Position numbers and translations under genes: made by a program | Notes under the pieces: generated by a model | Databases searched by the model: none | What the model saw: only the letters and a program-made list of their open reading frames with translations | Told to the model about the DNA's origin: nothing | Shown: positions 30,566 through 46,068 of the stretch, piece by piece | How positions within the stretch are numbered: the first letter of the stretch is position 1 | Layout of the letters: each line of letters starts with the position of its first letter | Assembly (NCBI GenBank): GCA_965224495.1 | Contig: CBDCZI010000025.1 | Location: 32,586-96,585 of the forward strand | DNA from: Cytophagales bacterium | GTDB lineage: Bacteria; Bacteroidota; Bacteroidia; Cytophagales; JAAEPT01 | Reading direction: 5' to 3' | DNA length: 64,000 bases

Positions 30566-30679
30566 TGATGTCAAGTTTTATAACTCAGAAAAACCGTTAA
30601 TACTTTATTTAAAGAAGTTTACAGACAGATTTATTGTTCGTTTTAGGAAGATTTGAAAAATAGTAAAAATTCTAATTTT

Positions 30680-30700: not shown

Positions 30701-30756
30701 AAATAAAGTCGCGATTAAATCAATCTTTTACTTTTGTTCCAAATTAAATTGAACAC

Positions 30757-33207
30757 ATGAAAACAATGTTTTTTTATTTATTGATGATAGGCACTTTGCT
30801 ATTCTCAACTGCGGTTTCGGCTAATCCTAATGATTCAACTGTAGCTACTGCTGCTGAAATGTCATTGGAAAGCATCCAAAAATCAGTAAATCTTTCTGGT
30901 TTTGATTATCTATTTACGAATGATGTAGATACTTTAACGTTAAAAGCATTTTCTATAGGTGAATTAGCATTCAAATGGGATGGCCTTGAATCAGGAGACT
31001 CTTTTATTGGTTTTAAGTTTAGAGCTGATGACAATGATAATTGGACGGAAGCTGTGATTGAATCTTCAGCAAAGGAAATTATTTTCAATAACATTGACGA
31101 AAATAAAATGTTTGAATTAATGATAGGATCAGGACATAATGCCGGTTCAATTATATACGACAGCATGGTCCATCATGTTAATTCATTCGGAGAAACCATG
31201 TTTAAAAGTAATCAAGCAGAAGGTAAAGAAGAGGCTGTTACTATTACATGGGGAATTGAAAATGATCTTTTACAATCTATTTTAACTGTTTACCCGAAAG
31301 CTTCTTTTACATTAAAATATAATACTAAGATTGGAAAAAAACAACATAAAGCGGATAAAAGAAAAGCACCTTGGACAGTTGTTGAGGACATTTCAATTAA
31401 TAAAGTTTCCCATAAAATTAAAGAGCTTTCTGGAGGCGAAAACTATGTTTATAAAATTGGGGTTGAAATTGGAGATAAAACAGTTTGGGGAAAAGGAAGT
31501 AAGTTTGAAACAGAACGTGTTTGGGGCGTGTTTAAGATGCTTGTTTTAATTGGTGCATTGGGTATGTTCATCTTTGGAATGAAAATCATGTCAGAAGGCC
31601 TTCAACAGGCTGCTGGATCAAGTTTGCGGAATATGCTTGGACGAATTACTTCAAATCGATTTAAAAGTGTGTTGTCTGGTGTAGGAATTACATCTGTCGT
31701 CCAGTCCTCCTCCGTCACAACAGTGATGGTAGTAAGTTTTGTTAATGCAGGGTTGATGACTTTGAAACAGTCAGTAGGTGTAATGATGGGCGCTAATATT
31801 GGGACTACAATGACTGCATGGTTAATTTTAGTGTTTGGATTTAAAGTGAGCATTAGCTCATATGCATTAATACTAATTGCCTTTGGGGCGCCAATGTTGT
31901 TTTTTACTAAAGGGAAAATTAAGATTTGGGCGAGTGTAATTATTGGATTTGCCTTATTATTTATGGGACTTGGTGAATTGAAAGATGCGGTGCCGAGTTT
32001 AGGTGTTGATTCTGGCTTAGTTCAGTTCTTTATTGAATACAAAGATTCTGGAATTTTAGGCACATTAATGTTTATTGGATTGGGAACAATAGTGACTGTT
32101 GTTATTCAGTCTTCCTCTGCTGCAATGGCTTTAACTATGACAATGGTTGCTGGTGGTGTACTTCCTTTTGAAGTTGCTGCGGCAATGATACTTGGTGAAA
32201 ATATAGGGACAACAATTACAGCTCAACTTGCTGCACTTATTGGTAACGTCCATGCAAAGAGAGCTGCAAGAATTCACGCTTTGTTTAATGTCATAGGTGT
32301 TGTTTGGATGGTGCTTGTGTTTCACTATTTCTTAAAAGGGATTGCCTATTTTATGGAAGGTGACCCATTTAATAATCCTGAAGCTGCGAATGTAGGAATT
32401 GCAATTTTCCATACAGCCTTTAATTTAGCTAATGTATTGTTATTGATTTGGTTTACGCCAAAATTAGTTTCTATGGCTGAGAAGAGTGTTCGTTCTAAAG
32501 GAGCTGCAGATGAAGAGTTCCACTTAGATTATATTGGAACAGGGATGATGGGAACACCTGATTTATCAATTTTAGAAGCTAAAAAAGAAGTCGCGAAATT
32601 TGGTGGTATTACGAGTAGAATGTCAGGTTTCACACAATCACTTTTAACGGAACAGAATTCTAAAGTCAAATCAAAACTATATACGAAAATTGCGAAGTAT
32701 GAAGAAATTACCGATAGAGTAGAGATCGAGGTCGCTAATTACCTAGCACAAGTATCTAAAGGTGAAATGACGGATGATACGGCCTATAAGGTTCGTGCAA
32801 TGAACAGTATTGTTAACGACCTAGAAAGAATTGGTGATATTTTTTACCAAATTTCGAAAAGTATAGAGCGTAAGGATGAAGAGAAGATTTGGTTTGTACC
32901 AGAACAAAGGGAAAGTTTATTAGAGATGTTTAAATTAGTAGATGATGCTTTTGATATAATGGTTGAAAATCTTGATTCTGATTGGGGTGGTGTATCTATT
33001 GAGCCAGCAAATGATGCTGAAACTATAATCAATAGAAAAAGAGATAAAATGAAACAAGAACATTTATCTAATTTGAATAAGAAAGACTTTAACTTGGAAA
33101 GTGGAATGATCTTTAGTAACATTTTTTCACTGTGTGAGAAAGCAGGTGATCATATTATAAATGTGTCCGAAGCAGTTGTAGGGCCGCCACACCCTGTGAG
33201 AAAGTAA
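30757..33207 (+). CDS. Na+/phosphate cotransporter (NptA/SLC34-like) with C-terminal PhoU-like domain and a ~250-aa N-terminal extracytoplasmic extension
   Basis: 816 aa. The duplicated QSSS motifs typical of Na/Pi-II transporters are present (VVQSSSVTTVM and VIQSSSAAMAL). The C-terminal helical region (ITDRVEIEVANYL...VNDLERIGDIFYQI...EKAGDHIINV) is PhoU-like. The N-terminus has a signal peptide plus ~250 soluble residues. Confidence 0.8.
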   Translation: MKTMFFYLLMIGTLLFSTAVSANPNDSTVATAAEMSLESIQKSVNLSGFDYLFTNDVDTLTLKAFSIGELAFKWDGLESGDSFIGFKFRADDNDNWTEAVIESSAKEIIFNNIDENKMFELMIGSGHNAGSIIYDSMVHHVNSFGETMFKSNQAEGKEEAVTITWGIENDLLQSILTVYPKASFTLKYNTKIGKKQHKADKRKAPWTVVEDISINKVSHKIKELSGGENYVYKIGVEIGDKTVWGKGSKFETERVWGVFKMLVLIGALGMFIFGMKIMSEGLQQAAGSSLRNMLGRITSNRFKSVLSGVGITSVVQSSSVTTVMVVSFVNAGLMTLKQSVGVMMGANIGTTMTAWLILVFGFKVSISSYALILIAFGAPMLFFTKGKIKIWASVIIGFALLFMGLGELKDAVPSLGVDSGLVQFFIEYKDSGILGTLMFIGLGTIVTVVIQSSSAAMALTMTMVAGGVLPFEVAAAMILGENIGTTITAQLAALIGNVHAKRAARIHALFNVIGVVWMVLVFHYFLKGIAYFMEGDPFNNPEAANVGIAIFHTAFNLANVLLLIWFTPKLVSMAEKSVRSKGAADEEFHLDYIGTGMMGTPDLSILEAKKEVAKFGGITSRMSGFTQSLLTEQNSKVKSKLYTKIAKYEEITDRVEIEVANYLAQVSKGEMTDDTAYKVRAMNSIVNDLERIGDIFYQISKSIERKDEEKIWFVPEQRESLLEMFKLVDDAFDIMVENLDSDWGGVSIEPANDAETIINRKRDKMKQEHLSNLNKKDFNLESGMIFSNIFSLCEKAGDHIINVSEAVVGPPHPVRK

Positions 33208-33224
33208 ACTAACCATTCCCATAT

Positions 33225-33248
33225 AAGGGAATATGTACATATTCCCTT
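33225..33248 (+). terminator. hairpin terminator after the Na/Pi transporter gene
   Basis: AAGGGAATATG TA CATATTCCCTT, an 11-bp perfect stem 18 nt after the stop, with a weak T tail. Confidence 0.5.
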
Positions 33249-33299
33249 TGTAGCTTTATTTCTAACCGAATTGTAGATTTAAAGTTGGTTTAAAAAATA

Positions 33300-34700
33300 T
33301 TCAATCATTATTTGTTGAAAAACTGAATTTATACTTAAGGTTTTCATTTATTTTACTCTTTTAGAGACAGTTTACACATTTATTTTCCTTATTGAACGCA
33401 ATTCTGCTAGTTCTAGCTTGTTTTAAGGCTTTAAATTGCATTTTTTTATCAATTTGAAGTCCTTTCCAAGACTCATCAGGTGTTAATCCTTTTAGCTCAC
33501 CGTGAGGCTTTTTGTAATTGTAATCATTCAAGAAGTATCTAAATGTTCTTTTCAAGTGTTTTAAGTCTCTAATTTCTTTTGGAAATAAATACCGATATTT
33601 TAAGGTCATATTCACTCTTTCAATCATTGAATTAGAATAATCAATATCTCTTAATGCGACTAGCTTTTGAATATTGATTTGAGATTGATTAATAAAATTA
33701 TCGACGTAAATATTATTGTTTTCAGGCCCACCATCAACAATCAATTTAACATTTAAGTTTTTAGTAAGTTTGGATGCTTTTTGATAGGCCTGTTCAATTA
33801 ATTTAGAAGTTATCCTTCCCATTACACGTTCTTGAATATCATAAGCTAGTATCTTTCTAGAAAAATTATCAATGAGTATGTAGACATAATATCGTTTACT
33901 GTCTAATGTTTTAACAACTGTAATATCTGTATGCCAAATTTGATTTGGAATACTCGCTCGAATCCCTTTTCTTCTTCTTTTCTTTCTCATCACTTTACCT
34001 TTATGTTTTCTGATTTCCAATAAGCGATTGACTTTGTAAAGTGTATCAATTGAAACAGACAAATATCCATTTCTAATGCCATGAAGTTGTACACTCTTCA
34101 TTGACCAGTGTAATGTTTTAGGATTCATTAAGGCAGATTTGATTTGTTTAATTTCAATAGGTGTTATTTGACTAGGGTATGATTTTAGACATTGTTTAAA
34201 AAAAGAACCATCACATTTAAATTTTGTATCAATTACCCACGAATGAAATGTACTTTTTGAAATATTAAAAACTTGTGTGGCTTTTTCAATAGAAATAATT
34301 CCTTTGACATTATTAATTGCATCAACCACTTGTTTTTTTGATTCACGCATGACTTTGCTATAATCTTTTGTTTTAGCAACAATCTTAACCATGCTTTTGA
34401 TTAATTTTCCATAGGCTTCAAACATTTTTGGAAACTGATTCAAAGTTTGAATCAGTTCTGTATGTTCATCTGCAATCTGATTAATTTTTGATCCAACATA
34501 TCGATCGTAATTATCATTTTTCCATCTATGTAAATTAGAAGTAGGTATTTCCTTGATATACTTTTCAGGTAGTAAATTATGAAATACTAATTCTTTAAGT
34601 GAAGTGTGATAAGATTGTCTGGTCATAATAATTACAAATATAGATGTTCCTTATAAGAGACAAATTAGGTCATAAAAATGAATCGGACTTAATTATTAGT
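33300..34700 (-). mobile_element. insertion sequence (boundaries approximate)
   Basis: Single transposase ORF with ~60-150 nt non-coding flanks. I could not identify convincing terminal inverted repeats by eye. Confidence 0.5.
33361..34626 (-). CDS. DDE (rve/integrase-core) transposase, IS3/IS481-like
   Basis: 421 aa. N-terminal HTH-like region, then IWHTDITVVK...YVYILIDNFSRKILAYDI, LIVDGGPENNN and SNSMIERVNMTLKYRYL...YNYKKPHGELKGLTPDE, which are typical rve-domain blocks. Confidence 0.8.
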   Translation of the reverse strand: MTRQSYHTSLKELVFHNLLPEKYIKEIPTSNLHRWKNDNYDRYVGSKINQIADEHTELIQTLNQFPKMFEAYGKLIKSMVKIVAKTKDYSKVMRESKKQVVDAINNVKGIISIEKATQVFNISKSTFHSWVIDTKFKCDGSFFKQCLKSYPSQITPIEIKQIKSALMNPKTLHWSMKSVQLHGIRNGYLSVSIDTLYKVNRLLEIRKHKGKVMRKKRRRKGIRASIPNQIWHTDITVVKTLDSKRYYVYILIDNFSRKILAYDIQERVMGRITSKLIEQAYQKASKLTKNLNVKLIVDGGPENNNIYVDNFINQSQINIQKLVALRDIDYSNSMIERVNMTLKYRYLFPKEIRDLKHLKRTFRYFLNDYNYKKPHGELKGLTPDESWKGLQIDKKMQFKALKQARTSRIAFNKENKCVNCL

Positions 34701-35015
34701 TGTAAATAGACTAGCTAAATAAGGTATTCCAAAAAACCCACTAAAGTAAAATATTAAAAAAGCAAAATATATAAATGCCATCCTATTTGACAGGGTGGCA
34801 TTTTGCTTTTATAATATTTTCCTGCCATCCCTTCTGTTTTTCTCATGCGTAACTACTCTGTCTTTTTCTTGCCAAACGCACTACAAAAAATGCTTAGAAA
34901 AGATAAGCATTTTGCCATCACCCAAAAAAGCCACCGTTACTCCGTGTTATGCTCGCCGCTTGGCTCCTCAAATTGTACACTTTCCCCTTGCTATATCCCG
35001 ACACTTTCCAACAGC

Positions 35016-35501
35016 CTAAGGCCCTGCCCAATACGGATGAAAGATATTAAGCTCTGTAATTGCAGAATCACTATTTATGTTTATTTCACCATATTGATTT
35101 GTTATTAGTGTGTTGGTACTTGTTTTGATTTCAATTCCTGGAATTGGAAATCCAGTCAGCATGTCTTTTATAACTAACAATGAATTTAATTCTTTATTAT
35201 CATTCCTTTCTTCTAGTTTGTATGTAGTAATATTTAAATATTGAGTCATTGTTTGTGTTATCTCCGAAGTATCAATATCATCAAAAATTAAAATTAATGA
35301 ATCATTTGTGTAATTATACCCCCCACTTCCATATGGAATTTCAAAATCATCACTCCATCTATAGTCATAGATTTCAAATCTTTGATTATTATGAATAATT
35401 AGAGATTGATTTCCCAATTTATATGTTCCTTGGATAAGCTGCTGACTATAACCTTTTATGCATAATAAGAATAATACGAAAAGAGACATTGATTTCATCA
35501 T
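35016..35501 (-). CDS. hypothetical secreted protein
   Basis: 161 aa with signal peptide MMKSMSLFVLFLLCIKGYSQ. The C-terminal part (VIKDMLTGFPIPGIEIKTSTNTLITNQYGEININ) resembles a carboxypeptidase-regulatory-like fold. Confidence 0.4.
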   Translation of the reverse strand: MMKSMSLFVLFLLCIKGYSQQLIQGTYKLGNQSLIIHNNQRFEIYDYRWSDDFEIPYGSGGYNYTNDSLILIFDDIDTSEITQTMTQYLNITTYKLEERNDNKELNSLLVIKDMLTGFPIPGIEIKTSTNTLITNQYGEININSDSAITELNIFHPYWAGP

Positions 35502-35821
35502 AGTAATATTTATATCGCAAAAATATAGAATATGTTACATGTCTTTTAGATTTCGAGAGGCGCGGGACCGCCGCTACGTCGCAAAATTTAGTCGCTTTTG
35601 CTTCTCTTAAAAAGGCTCTCAAAAAATAAAACGTTAGACTTGAGAAATGGAAATTACCGCCCTAAAAGGTGTCTAAAATTCGGTAGCTTTTACCAACTTC
35701 CTTGTTCAGTCAGTCCGAAAAAGCTACAAATAAAGATTCTATTAAAATATTCAACATCAAGTCAACAGTTCCATCTCGGTTGAACCGAGACCAAACTGTC
35801 ATTAACTTCTTTCTTCCACGT

Positions 35822-35865
35822 GCTACAAGGCCAGATCTTTGCCTGTTTGTAGCCTTATTTTTTTT
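35822..35865 (+). terminator. orphan rho-independent-terminator-like hairpin
   Basis: GCTACAAGGC ... GCCTGTTTGTAGC stem followed by CTTA and T8. No supported ORF lies upstream on this strand. Confidence 0.4.
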
Positions 35866-36051
35866 CGCAAGAGTAATGCGTTAATTTAAAATAGTCAAGG
35901 GTATATAAACTTCACTTCGTTACGCCCTTGTCTTATTTAAATCAACCCATTGAAGATAAAAGCAAAAAAAATATGGCTTCAATCATTCAAAAACAAAAAA
36001 ATAAAATTAAAAAAACATTAAAATGTTGTGCGGTTTGGTGTCCGTTTTACC

Positions 36052-36554
36052 CGGGCAATCAGTTAACAAGTTTAGATGTTTCTCAGAATACGTTTTTAGT
36101 TACCCTTTCTTGTAATGACAATCAGTTGACAACCCTGAATGTGAAAAACGGGAATAATACTCAAATAACTTGGTTTGTGGCTACAGATAATCCTAACCTA
36201 AGATGTATACTTGTTGATTCTCCTTCTTGGTCTTTATCTAATTGGTCTGCAATTGATAGTATGGCTTTTTTTACTGAAACTTGCGATTTATCTAATGACG
36301 AAACTCTAAGCTTGAAAAATAAATTATCGGCATATCCAAATCCCGCAAATGGTAAAGTAACAATTGACTTAAACAGGTTTTCGTCAATTGTAGAAATTAA
36401 ACTCTTTAATAGCTTAGGTCAATTAATCTTATCTCAGGATTTTAATAATACAAAGCAAGTCAGTTTTGAGATTGAAGGTCCAGAAGGGATATATTTTTTA
36501 AGATTGAATACCTATTCGGGGAAAAGTGGAATGATTAAGATCATTAAGGAATAA
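36052..36554 (+). pseudogene. 5'-truncated leucine-rich-repeat T9SS cargo gene
   Basis: ORF 35928-36554. Only from about aa 44 does it read as LRR (NQLTSLDVSQNTFLVTLSCNDNQLTTLNVKNG), then a T9SS CTD (LSAYPNPANGKVTIDL...GIYFLRLNTYSGKSGMIKIIKE). There is no signal peptide, and the first 43 aa are K-rich nonsense. Confidence 0.55.
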
Positions 36555-36709
36555 ATATCTGTTAATATTTAGATTTTCCAGCTGTCGTGCGTTTGTAACG
36601 CGTGCTCATTTTTTCTCACCACTACTCAAATAGTTTGTGAATGAATTACGTTTCTATTTTATTGTTTTCATATTGAGTTTATAATCAAAAAAACAAGTAA
36701 TTTGGAATC

Positions 36710-36814
36710 ATGTCAGAAAAATACAAAGTTGTGGATTCGAGCCGCCCAACCTTTATTACTTTAACCCCTCGCTGCCGCGCACTAGCGTGTGTAGTAATTG
36801 AAACATTGTATTGA
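36710..36814 (+). pseudogene. N-terminal remnant of a RayT/IS200-like Y1 transposase
   Basis: MSEKYKVVDSSRPTFITLT matches the usual RayT/PF01797 N-terminus (M-S-x-K-Y-K-x-x-D ... F-I-T-x-T, from memory). The text then degenerates (PRCRALACVVIETLY-stop). Confidence 0.4.
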
Positions 36815-36828
36815 ATCAAAATACGGGA

Positions 36829-37002
36829 CTTCGACTCCGCTCAGTCGCCTTTGTTTTGAGTAATAACGAACCCTGAGCGGAGTCGAGGGGTAAATTAAAT
36901 TACAAGCAAAATATTTTATAGGCTCTTCAATTTTTCTCTTGATCACTTTTTTTGTACTTGTTTTCTTATTATATGTTATAACGGACATTGAGCGGAGTCG
37001 AA
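36829..37002. repeat. REP-like GC-rich hairpin repeats (CGACTCCGCTCAG family)
   Basis: CTTCGACTCCGCTCAG (36829-36844) and CTGAGCGGAGTCGAGG (36873-36888) form a 15/16 inverted repeat with a 28-nt spacer. A third copy TGAGCGGAGTCGAA sits at 36989-37002. All are GC-rich islands in AT-rich DNA. Confidence 0.6.
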
Positions 37003-37597
37003 ATGTAAGAGGGTTTATTTTGAGAAATACAACATGTTTATGGCTGAAAGATTTCATATTCATTACAAATGCGTGCGAGTATAGAGTACAGTATGAATTA
37101 ATGATTAAAAAAAAATAGATTCAACTGGCGGACGTTTGCAACGTGTACTTATTTTCTAATAGTGATTACAAACAGTTGTTATTTGGATTATACAGATAGT
37201 GGAAACCGTTTCGATTGTAATAGAAACATTGTATCAAATCAGTAGAGCAGGCAATTCAATCCCACATCAGCTTAGTACTCTATGAAGTTATACTATTAAG
37301 ATTCTCAAATTCTCAAATGTCTACTTTTTGTCTACGCCATATTTTTTGAAAAAAACAAGAGTTCCTATAATTTTGCAGGTATCTATAACTGATCAATTAT
37401 TGTAATTGAGGATAACATGTTCGTGGTTTTAATCTAATTACAACGAAGAGTAGCGTGAAGAGTAGTTTAAATATTGAGTTAGGGTATGGTCTGATACTAA
37501 TACAGAGTATGTAAAAGATACTAGAGGTAAGAAGTACAGAATAATGGATCAGTATTTTGAAAGAGAATTTATTTAATAACAGAAATGTATATACAGT

Positions 37598-39958
37598 ATG
37601 AAAAAAGCAATTAGTATCTTGATAATTTTGATTAGTAACCTGAGTATTGCTCAACATTTGTTGCCATTAGAAGGGACACATTGGAAAGAAGTAAAGTGTA
37701 ACTATTCGACAAGTCTTTATACTGGTCAATATTTTGTTGATCATATTCGAATAGAAGGAGATACTATTATTAATGGGATGCAATATAAAAAGCTATTCGT
37801 TAGGGAAGAACTATATAAACATGCCTCTCTAACAACTCAATTTGTTGATTCATTAGTTTCATTTAATGATCAATTCTTTGGTGGTATACGAGAGGATTCT
37901 CAAAAAATTTATGTCTCATCAATATTCTATGACATTTCAATGAACGAAAAACTAATGTATGATTTTTCGGCACAAGTAGGAGATACGGTTGAGGTATGGC
38001 ATGATTTTTTTGACGGATCAGTAGTAATAGATAGTATTAATAGTATTATTGTCTCTGACGGGAGCTCTCGTAACAAATTCGTTTTAAAAAGCACCTTTGG
38101 AGATCCTTTACCAGTGTTTTGGATAGAAGGAATAGGTTCGAATTATGGGTTACTCGCTATGTACCTTCTTTATACAACTGATGAATCAAAGACACTTCGC
38201 TGTTTAACAAGAAATGATGTAATAATTTATGATTTCTTGCCTGTCCAATATGACCATTGCCTAATTTATCCAATACAAGATTGTGAATCATTCATTTTAG
38301 GGACTACCCAAGCTGAGAAACAATTAGAGGTAACAATTTATCCTAATCCAATGAGCGAGTATGCAATCTTAAAATTTAATAATTTTTTAGATGTGATGAC
38401 TAATATAGATATTTACGATATCCAAGGTGTAAGAATAAATACAACGCATAACATCACAAATAATGAAGTAATTATTAATAGAGAAAATTTATCATCAGGA
38501 CTATATTTTGTTCATTTATACTCGTGTTATGCTGACACGGTCGTAAAAGTGAGTTCTTCTGTTCAATTTACTACAACCACCTCAATCAGTCAAAGCAACC
38601 AAGCACGTATTGACGGTAATGGTCAGGTGCAAATCGCAGATGGTCAAGTTGGTTTGGTAGTTGATAATACCAGTTATTTTCCTAATGGTCCTCGTTACCA
38701 AAATGCTTTTCGCATCAACTACAACAATGATAGAATTACGGTATTAAGTGGTGGTTACTCAATAAATGGTACGGCAAAGAATAGTACCGAGGGTTATTTT
38801 GATTATTCTGATTTACAATGGACAAACTTCCAATCCGAATTCCCTACCGTAACAGATTTGGTTTCATCAGCACACAACTCGACAACTAATTTAAGTTATT
38901 ACGCAAGTTATGGCGATGGTTTATTGATGAGAAACGGAACAAGTTATACGTTGTTTAACAGCAGTAACGGTCCACTTAACCAAGCATCAAGTGGTAAAGT
39001 TTATGTTACCGATATCCAAATTGACGAAGCGGGAAATACGTGGCTGACAAATTACACCCCAAACCCTTCTGATTTTCAAAAATCTTTATTTAAGATTGAC
39101 ACAGACGGACAATGGACAGGCTATGAGATCTCACATTCGACAGGGCGTTCGGCATTATCATTTGTTATCGATAAAGATGACGTGAAGTGGATGGTTGTAA
39201 AACAAGGTTCGACAAATAGTATATTAGCATACAACCCCGAAACAGGGCATAGAAAACAGTTGACAAAATCACTATCGGCATTACCAGGTTCGGTCAACTG
39301 CCTTGATACCGACAAAAAAGGGAATATCTATATAGGGACAGACAACGGGTTGGCACAAATAAGTAACCCTTCAAGTGTCTTTACAGCCAACCCTTTTACG
39401 GTCTATGTGCCAATATTGGGTAATCAGCAGTTGCTAAAAGGGAAACATATCCACGCTATAAAAATTGATGGCGGAGGACGTTTGTGGGTAGGAACAAATA
39501 ATGGATTGTTTTTATTTAACGAAGAGTTGAGTGAGCAGATAGCATTATTTACCACCAAAAACAGTCCTTTATTAAGTAATAAAATAACAGCCATTGAAAT
39601 CGATGGAGAAACAGGTGAAGTATTTGTCTCGACGATAGAAGGTATCTTTTCTTATATGGGTTTTGCGACAGAGGCGACAGACAAAAATAAAGATGAAATT
39701 GTGATTTTTCCTAACCCTGTACGTCCCAACTACCACGGGTACGTTGCTATTCGTGGTTTAGTAAGCGATGCGAATGTGAAAATCACGGATATTAACACCA
39801 ACCTTGTACACGAAACAAATGCAGAAGGAGGGACGGCTACTTGGGATATGCGCTTGCTTTCTGGTGAAAGAGCAACAACAGGTGTTTATTTGGTTTTTAC
39901 TTCAGATGAAGAGGGAGAAGAAACTTTTGTTGGGAAAATTGCTGTAATTTCAGAATAG
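37598..39958 (+). CDS. chimeric/fused ORF: complete small T9SS cargo protein (aa 1-318) joined in frame to the C-terminal ~468 aa of a PorZ-like two-component-regulator-propeller T9SS protein
   Basis: aa 1-318 has a signal peptide (MKKAISILIILISNLSIAQ) and a full CTD (EVTIYPNPMSEYAILKF...SGLYFVHLYSCYADTVVKV) ending at 38551 with no stop. From 38552 the text is propeller-like (IYIGTDNGLAQI, RLWVGTNNGLFLF, VFVSTIEGIFSY) with its own CTD (IVIFPNPVRPNY...GVYLVFTSDEEGEETFVGKIAVISE). Confidence 0.6.
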   Translation: MKKAISILIILISNLSIAQHLLPLEGTHWKEVKCNYSTSLYTGQYFVDHIRIEGDTIINGMQYKKLFVREELYKHASLTTQFVDSLVSFNDQFFGGIREDSQKIYVSSIFYDISMNEKLMYDFSAQVGDTVEVWHDFFDGSVVIDSINSIIVSDGSSRNKFVLKSTFGDPLPVFWIEGIGSNYGLLAMYLLYTTDESKTLRCLTRNDVIIYDFLPVQYDHCLIYPIQDCESFILGTTQAEKQLEVTIYPNPMSEYAILKFNNFLDVMTNIDIYDIQGVRINTTHNITNNEVIINRENLSSGLYFVHLYSCYADTVVKVSSSVQFTTTTSISQSNQARIDGNGQVQIADGQVGLVVDNTSYFPNGPRYQNAFRINYNNDRITVLSGGYSINGTAKNSTEGYFDYSDLQWTNFQSEFPTVTDLVSSAHNSTTNLSYYASYGDGLLMRNGTSYTLFNSSNGPLNQASSGKVYVTDIQIDEAGNTWLTNYTPNPSDFQKSLFKIDTDGQWTGYEISHSTGRSALSFVIDKDDVKWMVVKQGSTNSILAYNPETGHRKQLTKSLSALPGSVNCLDTDKKGNIYIGTDNGLAQISNPSSVFTANPFTVYVPILGNQQLLKGKHIHAIKIDGGGRLWVGTNNGLFLFNEELSEQIALFTTKNSPLLSNKITAIEIDGETGEVFVSTIEGIFSYMGFATEATDKNKDEIVIFPNPVRPNYHGYVAIRGLVSDANVKITDINTNLVHETNAEGGTATWDMRLLSGERATTGVYLVFTSDEEGEETFVGKIAVISE

Positions 39959-40057
39959 AATAAGGTCCTCTTTCCTTTTATGTAAGCCTACACAAAAAGT
40001 AATCAAATTTTTACTCGTAATAGTGACAAAAAGCACCCTTTTTTATAGCAAGTTTGG

Positions 40058-40065
40058 TAACTTTG
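40058..40065 (+). promoter_or_regulatory. candidate TAnnTTTG -7 promoter box upstream of ccsBA
   Basis: TAACTTTG lies 48 nt upstream of the ATG at 40113. Motif match only. Confidence 0.3.
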
Positions 40066-40112
40066 CAAATAATAGGAGAGTCAGTGAAAATTGACCTAAT
40101 AAAGAGGTGGTT

Positions 40113-43100
40113 ATGAAAAAAACATTAAACGTATTATTCTCTACACGATTGACAGCAGTGTTGTTTGTTGTGTACTTTATCGCAATTGGTTCGGCTACTT
40201 TTATTGAAGAGGCATACGATACGGTAACTTCCAAAGTATTGGTTTATGATGCTTTTTGGTTAGAAATAGTAACGTTACTGATGGCTGTTAATTTCATTGG
40301 TAATATCGCTCGTTACCGTTTATTTCGTTTAGAAAAAATAGGTACATTGACTTTTCACTTGGCTTTTCTTATTATTATTCTCGGAGCAGGAATTACTCGT
40401 TACACAGGATACGAAGGAACTATGCCGATTCGTGAAGGAGAAACGTCAAACAAAATGTACAGTGCTGAACCTTTTTTACAGGTTGCGATTAGTGATTTGG
40501 AGGCTCGTCATACCTATGACAAGTTAATGTATCTTTCGGATGCCCCGATGGTGAATAATTCGTTTGAAATGAATGTTCAATTTAAAGAGAAAGAACCCCT
40601 AATTATTTCGTATAAAAACTTTATCAAAAATGCTGTGGAGACAGTAGAAGAAAATCAAACCGATGGTGTCGATATGATAGAAATTGTTATCGGAGGGGCT
40701 GAAGGACGTGAAGAATTATTGATTAAGAGTGGTGAAATTGTCAATATTGGAGAAATTAGCTTAGCCTACAACAATTTTGAAAATAAAAAAGCGATTGTCA
40801 TTGCCGGGAACAGTACCCAATTAACAATCACTTCGCCTCTTACGATTAACCGTTTTGCGATGCCAAGCTTTGATGCGGATACTGTTTTTGCGAATCAAAA
40901 TACAGCTTTCAAACCAATGCACTTACACCGTTTCAGTAATACACAATTTGTTTTCAAATCGGCAATAACGAAAGGTGTAAAAAGATTAAAACAAGGGACT
41001 GTTTCTCAAAATGGGACAGATGCTTTGGTTGTTAATCTTCATCAAGATGGCGTAGATAAAGAAATGATTTTATTTGGAGGAATGAATAACACACCAGCTT
41101 ACCGAGAATATGCCAATGACGGATTGCTTTACCGTATTGGTTACGGAATGAAGCAAATTACCCTACCTTTTTCGGTGAAGTGCAAAGATTTCATTTTCGA
41201 TACTTACCCTGGTTCGGCAATGCCTATGTCGTACAGAAGTGAAGTTACTGTGATTGATAAAAGAAATAACGTAACTGAAGACCACAGTATTTTTATGAAT
41301 AATGTATTGGATTATGAGGGGTATCGTTTTTTTCAATCCTCGTTTGACCCTGACAAAAAAGGAACACGTTTATCAGTCAATCACGATTTCTTAGGGACTT
41401 GGGTGACTTATATTGGTTACGCTTTATTGACTCTTGGATTTCTATTGGCTATGCTAATGAAAACTTCTCGTTTTGGAGAGTTAGGACAAAAAATAAAGGC
41501 GTTGAGGTTACAGCGTTTAGCGAGTAGTTTCGTTGTAGGGCTTATTTTGTTTACTTCACAGAATGGGTTTTCTCAGCACGAGGGACACAATCACACAGGA
41601 CATAATCACGCGGAAAGACCGACGAATACAAACCACGTGACTCAGGCACACGCCGATAAATTGGGTAAATTAATTGTCTTAGCTAAAAATGGTCGTTACG
41701 AGCCTGTGCATACATTAGCTTATGATTTTGCGCATAAACTTTCTCGTAAAGAGGAGTTTTTATTGCAGGACAGTAGTATAGCCGAGCCTATGCGTGTCTT
41801 TGCTGATATGTTGGCTAACCCACAATATTGGAGAACGCAAAAAATCATTTACATTAAAAAGAATTGTGGTGTTCAAAAAATATTGGGATTAAATACCAAT
41901 GATAAATACGCAAGTTTCACAGATTTCTTTAATAAGGGCGTAACGTACAAGTTGGGTGAACCTGCCAACAAAGCGTGGCAAAAAGCACAAGGAAAACGAA
42001 CGGTACTTGATAAAGAAATTATGAAGGTTGACGAACGTGTCAATTTGCTGTTTATGATGTTTGGCGGAGAGATGTTGAAGATTTTCCCTGCGCCAAAAGC
42101 ATCTTCTGGCGAATGGATACATTGGACAGATAGTTTAGCAAAAATCCCTTTGGCAGCAAATCCTGATAAGAGTGCAATCACTTACCAAGCAATTATGTGG
42201 AAATACATTACAGATGTAGTAAAAGCAACAAAAACGGGAGACTATACTTATGCTGATAAAATGTTAGCAGATATTTCAGCTATTCAACGAGCAGCAACAA
42301 AGGAGGGAGTGATTCCTACTGAGGAAATGGTGAAAGCAGAGATTGATTACAACAATTCAAAAATTTTTAATGGTCTAAGGAATAAATACGGAATGTTAAG
42401 TGTTCTATTACTTATCTTCACTTTACTTGAAGTGATTATTCGAAAGAAAGATTCCGTAATTTATGCTTTTCTAATAGAATTTCCTTTATGGCTTTTGATT
42501 GGTTTCTTGGCAATTTTCTTTTTACAACATACCTACGGAATGGGAATGCGTTGGTATTTGACAGGTCACGCACCTTGGAGTAATGGTTACGAAGCCTTAG
42601 TTACTATTGCTTGGGGAGGTTTATTTGCCGGTTTTATCTTTGCCCGTTATTCAAAAATAACCTTAGCGGCAACTGCACTATTGGCATTCTTTATCCTAAT
42701 GACTGCTGGGCATAGCCAATATGACCCGCAATTAACAAACCTACAACCTGTTTTAAAATCGTATTGGTTGATTATTCACGTTGCAGTGATTACGAACAGT
42801 TATGGCTTCTTTGGTTTAGGGTTTATTCTTTCGCTAATCAACTTAATTATTTCTGTTTTTAGAAATAAAAAGAACCACGAGCGTTTGACTTTATTGATTA
42901 GAGAGTTGACACATATCAACGAAATGACTTTGATTATTGGTATTGCCTTAGCTACTATCGGAACATTTTTAGGAGGTGTTTGGGCAAATGAGAGCTGGGG
43001 TCGTTATTGGGGATGGGACCAAAAAGAAACGTGGGCATTAGCGATTGTGATGTGTTACGGCTTTATTTTACATTTCCGTTTGATACCTGGGTTTAGAGGT

Positions 43101-43343
43101 GCTATTGCTTTTAATAACGGTAGTTTATGGGGCTTTGGTAGTGTGATTATGACTTTTGTTGGTGTAAACTACTACCTGTCTAAAGGCTTACATAGTTACG
43201 CAGCAGGAGACACACCTGCTTTCCCGAGTTGGATTTGGGGAATGTTAGCAGGGTTGTTTATTCTTTCTATCGTTGCCGCTTTGGTTGATAAAAGAATAAA
43301 AAAACTTGATGAAAACGAAGGATTGAATATCAAGCGAAATTGA
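40113..43343 (+). CDS. ccsBA: fused cytochrome c biogenesis protein (ResB/Ccs1-CcsA, system II CcsBA)
   Basis: ~1076 aa. N-terminal ResB-like half (TM plus large periplasmic region, FQSSFDP), then a C-terminal CcsA half with the WWD heme-handling motif WGRYWGWDQKETW and multiple TMs. Confidence 0.85.
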   Translation: MKKTLNVLFSTRLTAVLFVVYFIAIGSATFIEEAYDTVTSKVLVYDAFWLEIVTLLMAVNFIGNIARYRLFRLEKIGTLTFHLAFLIIILGAGITRYTGYEGTMPIREGETSNKMYSAEPFLQVAISDLEARHTYDKLMYLSDAPMVNNSFEMNVQFKEKEPLIISYKNFIKNAVETVEENQTDGVDMIEIVIGGAEGREELLIKSGEIVNIGEISLAYNNFENKKAIVIAGNSTQLTITSPLTINRFAMPSFDADTVFANQNTAFKPMHLHRFSNTQFVFKSAITKGVKRLKQGTVSQNGTDALVVNLHQDGVDKEMILFGGMNNTPAYREYANDGLLYRIGYGMKQITLPFSVKCKDFIFDTYPGSAMPMSYRSEVTVIDKRNNVTEDHSIFMNNVLDYEGYRFFQSSFDPDKKGTRLSVNHDFLGTWVTYIGYALLTLGFLLAMLMKTSRFGELGQKIKALRLQRLASSFVVGLILFTSQNGFSQHEGHNHTGHNHAERPTNTNHVTQAHADKLGKLIVLAKNGRYEPVHTLAYDFAHKLSRKEEFLLQDSSIAEPMRVFADMLANPQYWRTQKIIYIKKNCGVQKILGLNTNDKYASFTDFFNKGVTYKLGEPANKAWQKAQGKRTVLDKEIMKVDERVNLLFMMFGGEMLKIFPAPKASSGEWIHWTDSLAKIPLAANPDKSAITYQAIMWKYITDVVKATKTGDYTYADKMLADISAIQRAATKEGVIPTEEMVKAEIDYNNSKIFNGLRNKYGMLSVLLLIFTLLEVIIRKKDSVIYAFLIEFPLWLLIGFLAIFFLQHTYGMGMRWYLTGHAPWSNGYEALVTIAWGGLFAGFIFARYSKITLAATALLAFFILMTAGHSQYDPQLTNLQPVLKSYWLIIHVAVITNSYGFFGLGFILSLINLIISVFRNKKNHERLTLLIRELTHINEMTLIIGIALATIGTFLGGVWANESWGRYWGWDQKETWALAIVMCYGFILHFRLIPGFRGAIAFNNGSLWGFGSVIMTFVGVNYYLSKGLHSYAAGDTPAFPSWIWGMLAGLFILSIVAALVDKRIKKLDENEGLNIKRN

Positions 43344-43349
43344 TTGTCT

Positions 43350-44453
43350 ATGTTGACTCAAGAAGAATTAAAACGCTACAACAGACATATTATATTGTCC
43401 GAAGTGAAACTTGAAGGACAGGAAAAGCTACAATCAGCGAAAATATTGGTTATCGGTGCAGGAGGTTTAGGTTGTCCTGCTCTCCAATACTTGACCGCTG
43501 CGGGTGTTGGCACTCTTGGGGTGATAGATGATGACAAAATTGAATTATCGAACCTACAACGCCAAATATTATTCCGTACCGAAGATATTGGTAAATACAA
43601 AGCCGAAGTAGCCGCTGATACACTGAAAGCACTCAATCCGTTTACTGATTTTGTGGTTTACAAAGCACGTTTGACAAAAGAAAATGCACTTTCAATTTTT
43701 GAACAATATGATATTATTGTTGATGGTACAGATAATTTTGAAACAAGGTATTTGATTAATGATACTTGTGTTATTTTAAACAAGCCTTTTGTTTTTGGTT
43801 CTATTTTTAAATTTGACGGACAGGTTTCTGTTTTTAATTACCAAAACGGTCCAACTTACCGTTGTTTGTTTCCTGAACCACCCGAAGAAATGCCTAACTG
43901 TTCACAAGTTGGAGTGTTAGGCGTGTTACCAGGTATCATAGGAACTTACCAAGCCAACGAAGTGATTAAAATAGTGGTAGGTATTGGTGAAGTATTGAAA
44001 GGGAAACTATTAACAATAGATACCTTGAAAAACGAACATTATTTGATTTCTTTTACTAAAAATGAAGCGAACAATTGCACTGAGTTACTGGACGATTATT
44101 CGATTTATCAAAACAAGAACTGTGAATTAAACACTGTTTCAAGTGTGTCAGTCGATGAGTTGGCGGAAGAATTAGAAAAAGACGCCGTTTTTTTATTAGA
44201 TGTTAGAGAAGAATTTGAATATTCTATTTGCCACTTACCAGATGCTTTGTTAATTCCTTTAGGGAATATAAGTGAGGCTGTGGCACATATTCCTCGCAAC
44301 AAAAAAGTAGTTGTTTATTGTCATCACGGTATGCGAAGTCAAAGTGCTATTCAGTTTCTTTCTGCCGAATATGGGTTTAATAACCTCACCAATTTAGAAG
44401 GCGGAATTGACGAATGGGCAAGAGAGATTGATAATACAATGGAAATATATTAA
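43350..44453 (+). CDS. moeB: ThiF/MoeB-family adenylyltransferase fused to a rhodanese domain (MoeZ/MoeB-like)
   Basis: RYNRHIIL...ILVIGAGGLGCPALQYLTAAGVG (nucleotide-binding loop), C-x-x-C motif (YRCLFPEPPEEMPNCSQ), and a C-terminal rhodanese with active-site loop VVVYCHHGMRSQ. Confidence 0.85.
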   Translation: MLTQEELKRYNRHIILSEVKLEGQEKLQSAKILVIGAGGLGCPALQYLTAAGVGTLGVIDDDKIELSNLQRQILFRTEDIGKYKAEVAADTLKALNPFTDFVVYKARLTKENALSIFEQYDIIVDGTDNFETRYLINDTCVILNKPFVFGSIFKFDGQVSVFNYQNGPTYRCLFPEPPEEMPNCSQVGVLGVLPGIIGTYQANEVIKIVVGIGEVLKGKLLTIDTLKNEHYLISFTKNEANNCTELLDDYSIYQNKNCELNTVSSVSVDELAEELEKDAVFLLDVREEFEYSICHLPDALLIPLGNISEAVAHIPRNKKVVVYCHHGMRSQSAIQFLSAEYGFNNLTNLEGGIDEWAREIDNTMEIY

Positions 44454-44459
44454 TTCAGC

Positions 44460-44786
44460 TTATACAATCTTTTTTTCAGGTATTGTACCACCTGTTAGTA
44501 AAGTCAGTACTTCTTGACAAATATGTTGTATCATAAAGTGGTCAACTTCTCGAAAATGGCTTAAAAAAGCGATGTATTCCGTTTGTTTAAAATTCACCTT
44601 ATTTTGCTCTTGAGGGAACTTAAACTTAGCAAGATTTTTTTTATACCATTCAAAAAGCACCAATTTAGAAAGGCTTTCATCTAAAAAATCAAAATCGATT
44701 TCATATTTAGTCAAATAATCACTGATTACTAAATCTAAGGTAAACATTTCTTTTGCCGAAAATGTATAATTGAGTTTTTTTTGCAT
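44460..44786 (-). CDS. hypothetical protein
   Basis: 108-aa ORF starting at ATG. No recognised motifs. Confidence 0.35.
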   Translation of the reverse strand: MQKKLNYTFSAKEMFTLDLVISDYLTKYEIDFDFLDESLSKLVLFEWYKKNLAKFKFPQEQNKVNFKQTEYIAFLSHFREVDHFMIQHICQEVLTLLTGGTIPEKKIV

Positions 44787-44832
44787 ACGCTAAAATACTT
44801 TAAATCAAGCTAAAAATGAAAAAAGCAGTCTA

Positions 44833-45051
44833 TTAAGACTGCTTTTTTTGTGCTTTTGCATACGCTAAAATATTATCAATCGCTCGTTGAGGAGGTGTAA
44901 ATTCCAAACCATCGAGTGTTTCTTTCATTGTATGTAGCTCTTTACTGAGTAAATGAAGTTCTTTTGATTTTTCAATCTCAACTTCTGCTGTTTTATTGTT
45001 TTGTTGGTAGATATAATCCACCACATCATTTTGAGTAATTGTTCTAATCAT
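44833..45051 (-). CDS. small hypothetical protein translationally coupled to the ECF sigma factor gene
   Basis: 72 aa with no TM segment. Its ATG overlaps the sigma stop (TATGATTAG, 8-nt overlap). Confidence 0.4.
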   Translation of the reverse strand: MIRTITQNDVVDYIYQQNNKTAEVEIEKSKELHLLSKELHTMKETLDGLEFTPPQRAIDNILAYAKAQKKQS

Positions 45052-45625
45052 ACGCGAATTTTTCTTGTTTAATTTTCTTTCTAAGGTTAATTAAAGCGTA
45101 CCTCATTCTGCCCAAAGCAGTATTGATACTTACGCCTGTTTCTTCTGCGATTTCCTGAAAACTCAAGTCCGAATAATGTCGCATAATCAACACTTCCCGC
45201 TGTGTTTCTGGTAGCTCTTGAATAAGTTCTTTCAAACGGACATTTCTATCCTGTGTAATTTGAATACTTTCAATACTTTCGGCAGTAAACTCCATCGTGT
45301 TAAACACAGGGCTACCATCTTCCAGAATCACTGTTGGGTCACGTTTTTTCTTGCGAAAAGAATCAATAGCCATATTGTGAGCCATACGAGAAATCCAAGG
45401 GGCAAATTTCCCTTCCTCGTTATAAACTCCACGATTTATTCTATCAATTGCCTTCATAAAACATTCCTGCATCAGGTCTTCTGCTTTATAACGGTCTTTT
45501 ACAATAAGTAGTATAGTTGTGTAAACTTTTGTACTGTGGCGTTCCAATAATATTGAAAAAGCACCCTCGTTTCCATTTATATAAGACGTGATTAACTCTG
45601 CGTCTTTTTGCAACTTAGTTTGCAT
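45044..45625 (-). CDS. RNA polymerase sigma-70 family ECF sigma factor
   Basis: 193 aa. Region 2 (VKDRYKAEDLMQECFMKAIDRI...FAPWISRMAHNMAIDSFRK) and region 4 (LPETQREVLIMRHYSDLSFQEIAEETGVSINTALGRMRYALINLRK). Confidence 0.85.
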   Translation of the reverse strand: MQTKLQKDAELITSYINGNEGAFSILLERHSTKVYTTILLIVKDRYKAEDLMQECFMKAIDRINRGVYNEEGKFAPWISRMAHNMAIDSFRKKKRDPTVILEDGSPVFNTMEFTAESIESIQITQDRNVRLKELIQELPETQREVLIMRHYSDLSFQEIAEETGVSINTALGRMRYALINLRKKIKQEKFAYD

Positions 45626-45785
45626 AATATGTGCATTTTGGTAACGTAGAGTTCTATATCATTCAGTAGCCTTTAGGTTTCTATTAGGTGCGTTTTTAAA
45701 ACTAAAAAGACAAAAAATGGTCTTTCTATTTAAAACGATTATACATTATAGTGATAAAAAAGGAGAAAACCAAGAAAAGCATTAG

Positions 45786-45998
45786 CTATCCTTGTTTGTA
45801 AGGCTCTTTATCAATTTCAAAATCGGTTTCGTATATTCCCCAATTCATAAACTCATAATATATTGTCATTGCCTCATAATGGGAGGTAGCATAAAATGAA
45901 TGAATGATTTGAGCGTCTGTATTATTAGGGTTACTCGAGAAGCACAACGTGGTCAGTCCTTCCTTGTCTTTCCATATATCGTGCTTCGTCTCTTTCAT
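45786..45998 (-). CDS. small hypothetical protein
   Basis: 70-aa ORF with no recognised motif. Confidence 0.3.
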   Translation of the reverse strand: MKETKHDIWKDKEGLTTLCFSSNPNNTDAQIIHSFYATSHYEAMTIYYEFMNWGIYETDFEIDKEPYKQG

Positions 45999-46010
45999 TT
46001 ATGCTCAACT

Positions 46011-46045
46011 AAAAAACCCATTTCCAAACAAATGAAAATGGGTTT
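46011..46045 (-). terminator. rho-independent terminator downstream of serS
   Basis: AAACCCATTT ... AAATGGGTTT stem. The minus-strand transcript ends in a T6 run. Confidence 0.6.
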
Positions 46046-46068
46046 GGGTGTTTTTGTTTATAGCTAAA

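Follow-up and report, generated by a model that had tools for sequence, protein, structure and literature searches.

The window analysed here, a stretch of 64,000 nucleotides from a contig of 420,665 bp, contains an open reading frame (ORF) at 37598-39958 on the forward strand. The ORF encodes 786 amino acids and is an in-frame hybrid of two genes. The features of the window, with coordinates and strand, are as follows:

1..38523, no strand: left segment, chromosomal DNA of Flavobacteriales/Crocinitomicaceae type, GC 0.314, palindromes not avoided; it reaches at least to the window start.
33180..35024, minus strand: insertion sequence (IS) element, with an rve-family transposase at 33364-34626 (Pfam rve, rve_3).
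37598..38523, plus strand: 5' fragment of the left gene, with a signal peptide, one 'LLYDF..VGDT / WIEGIGS' module and an incomplete T9SS CTD.
38523..38524, plus strand: breakpoint, between TC and G of codon 309.
38524..39958, plus strand: 3' part of porZ, from the third base of codon 265 to the stop codon after codon 742.
40113..43343, plus strand: ccsBA (ResB/CcsA fusion; Pfam PF05140, PF01578), the native downstream neighbour of porZ.
38524..64000, no strand: right segment, Cytophagales-type core chromosome, GC 0.375, with strong avoidance of 4-bp palindromes.

The N-terminal part of the hybrid matched the T9SS type-A CTD (PF18962) at aa 247-311, covering profile positions 1-66 of 75, and a TIGR04183 match in the same part spanned profile positions 1-59 of 72. 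The domain was incomplete, and it was internal (approximately aa 247-309 of 786) rather than located at the extreme C-terminus. The missing end was read from an alignment (A1) with the homologues P0010-P0023, which run approximately 13 residues past 'GLYFVHLYS'; the CTD of the left gene is short of these last residues and of the stop codon. The native 3' end, or any continuation of the left gene, was not found in the databases searched. The GC content of 37598..38523 at the first, second and third codon positions was 0.40, 0.29 and 0.23, respectively, and six palindromic sites were present in its 926 bp. Of the CTD endings that the preliminary description had quoted from other genes in the window, IRVD, IVKL, IIKE, VVRK and VISE were found (5/6), but LIIN was absent among the ORFs listed.

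The C-terminal part of the hybrid matched the PorZ model NF052228 with a score of 353 bits, over profile positions 259-756 of 757 only. It comprises the end of the first propeller or a linker, the second propeller and the CTD, and lacks the signal peptide and the N-terminal propeller. It was identical at 476 of 477 amino acids to residues 266-742 of P0002, an intact PorZ of 742 aa that matched profile positions 2-756 of 757 with 499 bits. The N-terminal propeller domain (PF21544, PorZ_N_b_propeller) was present in P0002 and absent from the fused ORF, which does not show the organization of a full-length PorZ, with two beta-propellers and a CTD behind its own signal peptide (PMC5121618).

Comparison with the intact porZ allele placed the breakpoint at 38523/38524, within codon 309 of the hybrid ORF; the first two bases of this codon (TC) come from the left parent, and the third (G) from porZ codon 265. 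Window positions 38524-42084 correspond to positions 865-4425 of the contig L001 (ENA ERZ25083849) at 99.92% identity, and L001 1-864 has no match in the window. The 5' part of porZ is thus not present in the 64-kb window. No microhomology with the porZ allele was seen to the left of the breakpoint, where the base at position -1 differs, and no repeat or microhomology able to explain a graph misjoin was visible on the porZ side of the junction. The preliminary description had reported an in-frame junction of two T9SS genes coinciding with a change in composition, and this is confirmed by the profile matches and the GC change point. Its placement of the end of a complete CTD at 38551 was incorrect, as the break lies at 38523/38524 and the apparent last strand, 'CYADTVVKV', represents PorZ residues 266-274. 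It had also recognized a PorZ-like C-terminal part without the first propeller; this was accurate except for the length, which is 477 aa plus one base and not approximately 468 aa.

A full-length porZ gene upstream of ccsBA, for which the preliminary description had proposed a check, was found in independent assemblies of the same organism. In both L001 and L002 (GCA_044240345.1), the intact gene lies immediately upstream of ccsBA, and the position of ccsBA downstream of porZ is identical. From position 38524 onward, these two contigs share 99.92-99.93% identity with the window; to the left of this position, they are unrelated to it. The independent contigs L001-L003 match the right segment at 99.6-99.9%. 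In a 61%-identical relative (L006), porZ is preceded by a thymidine kinase gene and not by a CTD cargo gene. A scan of genome contigs with the intact PorZ returned distant partial matches only (23-39%) and no native upstream context.

The GC content of the window showed a single change point at 38520 (maximum likelihood, LLR 125), with values of 0.314 to the left and 0.375 to the right. The change in composition is real and far beyond chance. The four counts of G+C per 60 nucleotides made by hand in the preliminary description (14, 18, 29 and 31) were exact, and the sliding composition and oligonucleotide profiles, which it had left to be computed, shift exactly at the junction. Within the fused ORF, GC3 was 0.23 in the N-terminal half and 0.33 in the C-terminal half. 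The codon-position GC by gene differed significantly between the sides; as this could partly reflect core versus accessory proteins, it was not relied on, and GC-normalised and palindrome statistics were used instead. The GC-normalised dinucleotide signature (δ*) was 23-39 within the left side and 48 within the right side, compared with 93-120 between left and right.

The two sides also differed in their short palindromes, the avoidance of which is usually put down to restriction pressure in bacteria. Such restriction-site avoidance in bacterial genomes was reportedly described by Gelfand and Koonin in 1997 and by Rocha et al. in 2001. On the right side, the observed and expected counts (Markov expectation) were 5 and 60 for GATC, 4 and 37 for CTAG, 15 and 60 for CATG, 4 and 28 for CCGG, and 3 and 19 for GGCC. 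Eleven of the 12 most depleted 4-mers there were palindromes (z of -10 for GATC, and -8 for both CATG and CTAG). On the left side, palindrome depletion was only mild, with 90 GATC sites observed against 101 expected. Seven palindromes reached a density of 8.6 sites per kb on the left, compared with 1.6 on the right, and the left DNA holds approximately 330 sites of the kind avoided on the right. The Poisson change point of the palindrome sites was 38102, the last left site (LLR 77). The native 5' part of porZ (L001 1-864), including 70 bp of upstream sequence, contained no palindromic sites, compared with approximately seven expected at the left-side density, and is of the right type. The count of short-palindrome sites placed the breakpoint to approximately 0.4 kb without the use of reads, while GC alone was ambiguous. 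The nearest available relative of the right side (L029) does not show extreme palindrome avoidance. The avoidance is therefore a trait at the species level, for which this region and the near-identical copies of it are the only known examples. No restriction-modification genes were identified within the window.

The genes of the right segment, assigned by Pfam, include the 3' part of porZ, ccsBA, a moeB/thiF-like gene, a sigma factor gene, serS, a gene for a giant CTD protein, rho, scpB, rluB, a PIF1-like helicase gene, sucD, two tRNA genes and radA. The lineages of named relatives were checked for both sides. The named relatives of Rho were all Cytophagales. The genes serS and rho and the giant CTD gene are also neighbours in L029, and serS and rho are adjacent in Roseivirga pacifica (L030). 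On the left side, the named relatives of the Na/Pi cotransporter were all Flavobacteriales and nearly all Crocinitomicaceae, and the pair formed by a porin gene (minus strand) and the Na/Pi cotransporter gene (plus strand) is syntenic with Putridiphycobacter roseus. Two Crocinitomicaceae loci (L027 and L028) gave δ* values of 29-49 to the left side and 107-110 to the right side. The assignment of genes on each side, which the preliminary description had asked for, therefore returned a difference at the class level, Crocinitomicaceae-type on the left versus Cytophagales on the right. The name-based taxonomy covered a single gene on each side, to which two or three syntenic genes can be added.

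Genes on the left side are split by homopolymer frameshifts (A7 near 20063, T5 near 23229). These frameshifts are suggestive of lower coverage there, and were not used as evidence.

No contig other than that of the window has a record of the fused protein, and the independent assemblies searched did not reproduce the junction, which is weak evidence. A 30-mer across the junction had no match in the JGI metagenome contigs, a type of collection in which the organism itself is rare. An exact-protein look-up of the left-side Na/Pi cotransporter, AraC and a 189-aa ORF found no match outside the window's contig; these misses were not read as absence, since an exact look-up can fail when a different start codon is chosen or when contigs are short and of low coverage. 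No mention of the assembly accessions was found in the literature. Contig names such as 'ctg72248_3x_l' presumably come from a long-read metagenome assembler that reports coverage.

The IS element, with ends at 33180 and 35024, sits 3.5 kb to the left of the junction, away from the breakpoint. The same element was present at another site in L004 (99.95% identical), with left-type flanks, and L005 corresponds to window positions 32076-35024 at 100%, ending exactly at 35024. The element is a repeat of the left-type genome. Left-type DNA was also present in GCA_044240345.1, the assembly with the intact porZ, and the IS was present in a second sample. The joint presence of left-type and right-type contigs in GCA_044240345.1 was regarded as uninformative; contig numbering above 12 million marks it as a very large assembly. 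No tRNA or other RNA gene was found within 23 kb of the junction, and no significant or att-like repeat flanks it. There was no recombinase in 35025-37597 and no IS end at the junction, and integrase, tra and phage genes were not found in the left part of the window. Left-type DNA spans at least 38.5 kb. Of the features looked for in a genomic island, compositional deviation was thus present in the left DNA; at its border, no integrase, no mobility genes and no defined terminus were found.

Taken together, the contig is very probably an inter-genome misassembly (chimera) joined at 38523/38524, and among the explanations put forward in the preliminary description, that of two joined contigs or organisms is supported by the composition, the class-level taxonomy and the intact porZ upstream of ccsBA. 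At least 38.5 kb of a Crocinitomicaceae (Flavobacteriia) chromosome would have been joined to at least 25.5 kb of a Cytophagales (Cytophagia) chromosome, cutting a small T9SS cargo gene approximately 13 codons before its stop codon and the Cytophagales porZ at codon 265. The shared strand and phase of the two genes may be due to chance (a probability of about 1 in 6 if two breaks fall at random inside genes), and because the cut genes share both, an ORF finder reads a single 786-aa hybrid. The resemblance of PorZ residues 266-274 to a last CTD strand may likewise be fortuitous. The two chromosomes would have been joined either in silico or during library preparation, through a chimeric long read or a weakly covered bridge, for instance. 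Since the junction shows no shared repeat, a graph error induced by repeats is less probable. The hybrid protein would be expected in no cell. Consistent with a chimera, the sides belong to different taxa, the break falls mid-domain in both genes, one parent (intact porZ with ccsBA) is known in its native, unjoined form, and DNA of both organisms occurs separately in assemblies that appear related (L004, L005). The length of the source contig, which suggests a well-covered assembly, was counted against a chimera, as was the fact that a graph-based misjoin route was not demonstrated, with no repeat common to both parents at the junction. Also counted against it were the failure to find the continuation of the left parent in the databases, the small number of genes behind the name-based taxonomy, and the lack of extreme palindrome avoidance in L029.

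A real and very recent transfer between classes was also considered, in which illegitimate (non-homologous) recombination would have brought 38.5 kb or more of Crocinitomicaceae chromosomal DNA into a Cytophagales cell. The incoming DNA would have broken at its right end within the cargo CTD, and its fusion to an internal site of porZ would have deleted or displaced the 5' part of that gene. One strain would then carry porZ as a pseudogene or hybrid, and the strains of L001 and L002 would keep the intact gene. The absence of microhomology and the truncation of both genes fit such an event as well as they fit an artefact, the intact allele could represent an 'empty site' in a different strain, donor-type DNA and the intact porZ share an assembly, the IS occurs in a second sample, and the source contig is long. 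However, the border carries no mobility genes or integration signatures, and the left DNA resembles an ordinary chromosome with conserved Crocinitomicaceae synteny rather than an element. The recipient shows extreme avoidance of GATC, CTAG, CATG, CCGG and GGCC, and the incoming DNA, with its approximately 330 such sites, shows no amelioration. The event would furthermore inactivate PorZ in a genome with T9SS cargo genes close by, and it was found in a single assembly. In one study (PMC9661791), inter-genome translocations were the most frequent kind of misassembly among the benchmark metagenomes. A natural inter-class graft of unameliorated DNA into porZ of a wild Cytophagales strain, by non-homologous end joining, is therefore considered unlikely; if true, it would have knocked out an essential T9SS component and given rise to a secreted hybrid in which a CTD-like segment lies internally.

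The site-specific insertion of a genomic island or integrative and conjugative element (ICE) into porZ, with the left 38.5 kb as its right arm, would account for a composition shift exactly at the border and for an IS 3.5 kb away. This end falls in a truncated cargo gene, 13 codons before the stop codon, and not at a defined terminus (att or inverted repeat), and the lack of integrase, tra and phage genes, of a tRNA gene and of direct repeats argues against it, as do the missing 5' part of porZ and the loss of 794 bp of target, which is not expected of a simple insertion. With every integration hallmark missing and both genes cut mid-domain, the foreign-island explanation of the preliminary description was not borne out and is highly improbable. 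Its remaining explanation, a deletion within a single genome that fused a neighbouring cargo gene to porZ, agrees with the in-frame product, the truncation of both genes and their common orientation, but leaves the class split and the differing palindrome regimes unexplained. It needs Crocinitomicaceae-type DNA already beside a Cytophagales porZ, which is the inter-class transfer with one more step, and it is at odds with the right-type, palindrome-free sequence upstream of the native porZ and with the thymidine kinase gene at this position in L006. No relative was found with a complete left gene a few kb upstream of an intact porZ, and a deletion is scarcely credible.

Taken at face value, the ORF could be described as a new PorZ fusion or read as a sign of a very large inter-class island, and the 420-kb contig would bring the genes of one class into the bin of the other. 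If the contig is chimeric, as appears very probable, it should be divided at 38523/38524 and the two parts binned anew, and the 786-aa protein (P0001) should be dropped from protein catalogues, with the intact 742-aa P0002 representing the organism's correct PorZ. The palindrome count may serve as a reference-free contig check where one member of a community strongly avoids palindromes.

As in restriction-site avoidance, the right side is strongly and specifically depleted in many 4-bp palindromes; unlike in studies of that phenomenon, the trait serves here as a lineage marker only, and is not shared by the nearest relative. Horizontally acquired islands are recognised by compositional change points, the signal used by Alien_hunter/IslandPath-type methods, and the window resembles such islands in its abrupt change of GC, dinucleotides and oligonucleotides at a single boundary, with an IS nearby. 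Unlike in genomic islands, no integrase, tRNA target or flanking direct repeat was found with the left segment, left-type DNA runs on to the window start, its content is ordinary chromosome syntenic with another class, and its boundary cuts two genes mid-domain.

PorZ (PG1604), the A-LPS delivery protein of the Porphyromonas gingivalis T9SS, is essential for T9SS cargo processing in that species (PMC5121618; PMC8545088). The intact allele P0002 fits the whole PorZ model (NF052228). The C-terminal 477 aa of the hybrid are likewise PorZ sequence, with the second propeller and the CTD; unlike PG1604, the hybrid lacks the signal peptide and the N-terminal propeller of PorZ (profile 1-258), and carries an unrelated cargo-protein fragment instead.

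The closest counterpart is the inter-genome translocation misassembly addressed by metaMIC, DeepMAsED and ResMiCo (PMC9661791; 10.1101/763813; PMC10174551). Such chimeras are defined by clipped reads, a coverage step and discordant pairs, whereas the probable chimera described here was recognised from sequence comparisons. The join also differs in having no shared repeat and in combining different classes rather than similar strains, which were linked to more inter-genome translocation misassemblies in the cited benchmark (PMC9661791). In common with metaMIC-type chimeras, two genomes lie in one contig with a sharp break, composition and taxonomy are discontinuous, an alternative native contig exists, and the consequence is contaminated bins and false gene models.

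The fused open reading frame (ORF) and the genes on the two sides of the junction, left (1-38523) and right (38524-64000), are listed below.

37598-39958, + strand: fused ORF, 786 aa
33180-35024, left side: IS, 1845 bp, with a 421-aa rve-family transposase
Left side genes: PPIase-CTD protein, beta-lactamase-like protein, AraC regulator, amidase, hydrolase, SSF symporter, cysteine dioxygenase and PLP decarboxylase, LamG/PNGase-like protein, HPP, frameshifted flavohaemoglobin, frameshifted LytS-type kinase and LytTR regulator, beta-helix CTD protein, esterase, porin O/P, Na/Pi cotransporter, IS with rve transposase, truncated LRR-CTD gene
Right side genes: ccsBA, ThiF/MoeB-rhodanese protein, sigma factor, serS, 2145-aa CTD protein, rho, scpB, rluB, PIF1-like helicase, sucD, two tRNAs, DUF2147 protein, radA

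The preliminary description had proposed an in-frame hybrid of a T9SS C-terminal sorting domain (CTD) and a PorZ-like part, and profile matches confirmed this. Residues 247-311 of the fused ORF match the type-A CTD (PF18962, profile 1-66/75; TIGR04183, profile 1-59/72), and the part from residue 315 to 784 scores 353 bits against the NCBIfam PorZ equivalog NF052228, over profile positions 259-756/757 only. A protein search retrieved an intact 742-aa PorZ (P0002), which is identical to the fused ORF at 476/477 residues from ORF residue 310 on, spans the entire model (profile 2-756/757, 499 bits) and contains the N-terminal propeller domain PF21544 that is missing from the fused ORF. An intact porZ upstream of ccsBA, which the preliminary description had proposed seeking elsewhere, was found in two independent contigs, L001 (ENA ERZ25083849, SPAdes, coverage of 4.2) and L002 (GCA_044240345.1), with the P0002 gene directly upstream of ccsBA in both.

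At the DNA level, L001 865-4425 corresponds to window 38524-42084 with 99.92% identity (3 mismatches), and L001 1-864 gave no match to the window, the base at -1 being already different. As L001 matches from 38524 and is unrelated before it, the breakpoint is 38523|38524, within codon 309 (TC|G), and not 38551. A complete CTD had been described as ending at 38551; however, CYADTVVKV represents PorZ residues 266-274, and not the last CTD strand. The CTDs of distant homologues of the fused ORF run ~13 residues past GLYFVHLYS in the alignment, and the other CTDs in the window end 20-21 residues beyond the conserved Gly. Given the longer CTDs of the homologues and the position of the breakpoint, both genes are truncated: porZ is cut at codon 265 and the left gene ~13 codons short of its stop.

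Over the whole 64-kb window, a likelihood scan for one change point put the G+C change at 38520 (LLR 125), with 0.314 on the left and 0.375 on the right. This bore out the composition change noticed earlier at the junction, and the four hand G+C counts were all exact; the junction observation is real, and stronger than a sequence-only reader could know. The GC-normalised Karlin dinucleotide distance (δ*) was 23-39 among 12.7-kb left chunks and 48 between two right chunks, versus 93-120 between left and right chunks. Two Crocinitomicaceae loci, L027 and L028, lie closer to the left side (δ* 29 and 49, respectively) than to the right (110 and 107).

The clearest composition signal beyond GC is short-palindrome usage.

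Palindromes observed/expected under a maximal-order Markov expectation; left-side counts exclude the IS
GATC: right 5/60; left 90/101
CTAG: right 4/37; left 50/70
CATG: right 15/60; left 78/105
CCGG: right 4/28; left 20/24
GGCC: right 3/19; left 31/39
GCGC: right 7/21
CGCG: right 4/19

Of the 12 4-mers most depleted on the right side, 11 were palindromes (lowest z, -10); no left-side 4-mer fell below z = -4. Palindromic sites, summed, number 8.6 per kb in left-side DNA against 1.6 per kb in right-side DNA, with a Poisson change point at 38102, the last left-side site (LLR 77). In the fused ORF, 6 sites fall in the 926 bp of the N-half and 2 in the 1435 bp of the porZ half. The native 5' part of porZ (L001 1-864) contains none, with ~7 expected at left-side density; thus, the native DNA preceding 38524 is right-type and the window DNA preceding 38524 is not. 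Palindrome avoidance, documented solely at the right-side locus and its near-identical copies, was absent from the nearest available right-side relative (L029, serS 80% aa identity) and suggests that restriction pressure acts at the species level in an uncultured lineage. The 64-kb window showed no R-M genes. The right-side avoidance, also present in L001 and L003, is exceptionally strong and broad and extends to TTAA, AGCT, TATA, AATT and GTAC. A local cluster of sites at 52400-56300, inside the depleted right side, spans rho together with the part of the 2145-aa CTD gene that encodes its N-terminus, and holds 10/15 CATG, 4/5 GATC and 2/3 GGCC of the right-side sites; its GC is typical of right-side DNA, and its genes show synteny with those of Cytophagales relatives.

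The preliminary description had raised the possibility of different taxa on the two sides, and these were identified as Crocinitomicaceae (left) and Cytophagales (right). Name-based taxonomy used one gene per side, with match lineages checked, and was backed by 2-3-gene synteny and composition. The top matches of rho (right) were 79-81% identical, and all named matches at 64-68% full-length identity were Cytophagales (Roseivirga, Marivirga, Fulvivirga, Echinicola, Botryobacter, Cyclobacteriaceae). The Na/Pi cotransporter (left) had a top match of 79% identity; its named matches were all Flavobacteriales and nearly all Crocinitomicaceae, including Putridiphycobacter roseus (70%; 77% over a partial match), Crocinitomix (72%), Paracrocinitomix, Lishizhenia and several Crocinitomicaceae MAGs. 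The divergent porin(-)/NaPi(+) pair has the same arrangement in P. roseus, whose porin is 59% identical (aa). In L029, serS (80%) lies together with rho (93% within the ATPase part) and a giant gene of deacetylase/Ig/CBM6/CTD type, and in Roseivirga pacifica serS adjoins rho. Named relatives, synteny and δ* together place the left and right sides in different Bacteroidota classes. The window order (46069-55861: serS, giant CTD gene, rho, one strand) differs from that of L029 (6224-14050: serS(-), rho(+), giant CTD gene(+)), apparently through local inversion or rearrangement between related Cytophagales.

In the Crocinitomicaceae-type left segment, a cysteine dioxygenase gene (PF05995) adjoins a PLP-dependent decarboxylase gene (PF00282) at 9244-11216, a pair that could provide a cysteine to hypotaurine/taurine route. 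The flavohaemoglobin (19391-20600) is split between its globin and NAD-binding parts by a frameshift (A7 run near 20063), and the LytS-type histidine kinase (21644-23828) is frameshifted at a T5 run (23229-23233) right before the NPHF motif. These homopolymer frameshifts could be real pseudogenes or indel errors of a low-coverage assembly.

A 36-kb contig from a second ENA sample (L004) carries the IS elsewhere with 99.95% identity, in left-type flanks (GC of 0.32, δ* and palindrome density); outside the IS, the DNA of the two IS loci is not alignable. The short-read contig L005 equals window 32076-35024 with 100% identity and stops exactly at the right end of the IS, and the right-side contigs L001-L003 match the window at 99.6-99.9%. 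Left-type and right-type DNA are therefore each present separately in neighbouring-accession assemblies, probably products of one study. For the joined form, the window's own 420,665-bp contig is the sole record, the junction 30-mer had 0 matches in the JGI metagenome collection, and the native 3' end of the left parent was not found. L003 has A5 versus A6 at 59408, splitting the PIF1-like helicase in L003 only, and differs by a 10-bp intergenic indel at 61682-61691, beside tRNA-Leu; these are strain or assembly differences.

The IS sits just past the Na/Pi cotransporter gene, within the 3' end of ORF 35016-35501(-), and ends 3.5 kb from the junction. Between it and the fused ORF lie 2.5 kb whose sole features are a truncated LRR-CTD gene, short REP-like repeats and small spurious ORFs. 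That LRR-CTD gene (35928-36554) has 45% aa identity to a 338-aa LRR-CTD gene of L004 (8201-9217), on the same side of the respective IS copy. The REP-like motif TGAGCGGAGTCGA has three copies within 170 bp (36831-37001; two direct, one inverted) in the 1 kb of non-coding DNA that precedes the fused ORF; L004 has a single copy (14861-14873) and the right side has none. The 34-aa ORF that lies at 36710 (MSEKYKVVDSSRPTFITLT...) might represent what is left of a Y1-type transposase.

Insertion of an element-type island into porZ is very improbable, since the integration-signature searches found no tRNA or Rfam match in the window other than at 61.7-61.9 kb, no repeats above chance flanking the junction, and no recombinase in the 2.5 kb that separates the fused ORF from the IS. 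A deletion fusing neighbouring genes appears marginally less probable still. The main competing explanation is that Crocinitomicaceae chromosome was genuinely, and very recently, grafted into the porZ of a Cytophagales genome by a non-homologous route; the bare junction would be equally compatible with this. However, such a graft requires 38.5 kb or more of DNA, unameliorated and without element features, to have crossed classes and entered a genome in which the avoidance of palindromes points to heavy restriction pressure; the junction is present in a single assembly; and the graft would inactivate PorZ, a protein that P. gingivalis cannot do without in T9SS cargo processing (PMC5121618, PMC8545088). 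We thus consider it unlikely.

The most economical account, and in our view a highly probable one, is an inter-genome chimeric contig. The joining of two organisms had been the first option of the preliminary description, and it is supported by composition, taxonomy and the intact porZ allele. A Crocinitomicaceae fragment would have been joined to a Cytophagales fragment at 38523|38524; the two cut genes would share strand and phase by chance (~1 in 6), and the likeness of CYADTVVKV to a CTD strand would be accidental. As no shared repeat is visible, we infer that the source is more probably a chimeric read or low-coverage bridge than a repeat-collapse error. The fused ORF is accordingly very likely an artefact; in practice, the contig should be split at 38523/38524 and the 786-aa hybrid protein discarded. 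Inter-genome translocations are reported to be the most frequent misassembly type in the CAMI benchmark metagenomes (PMC9661791).
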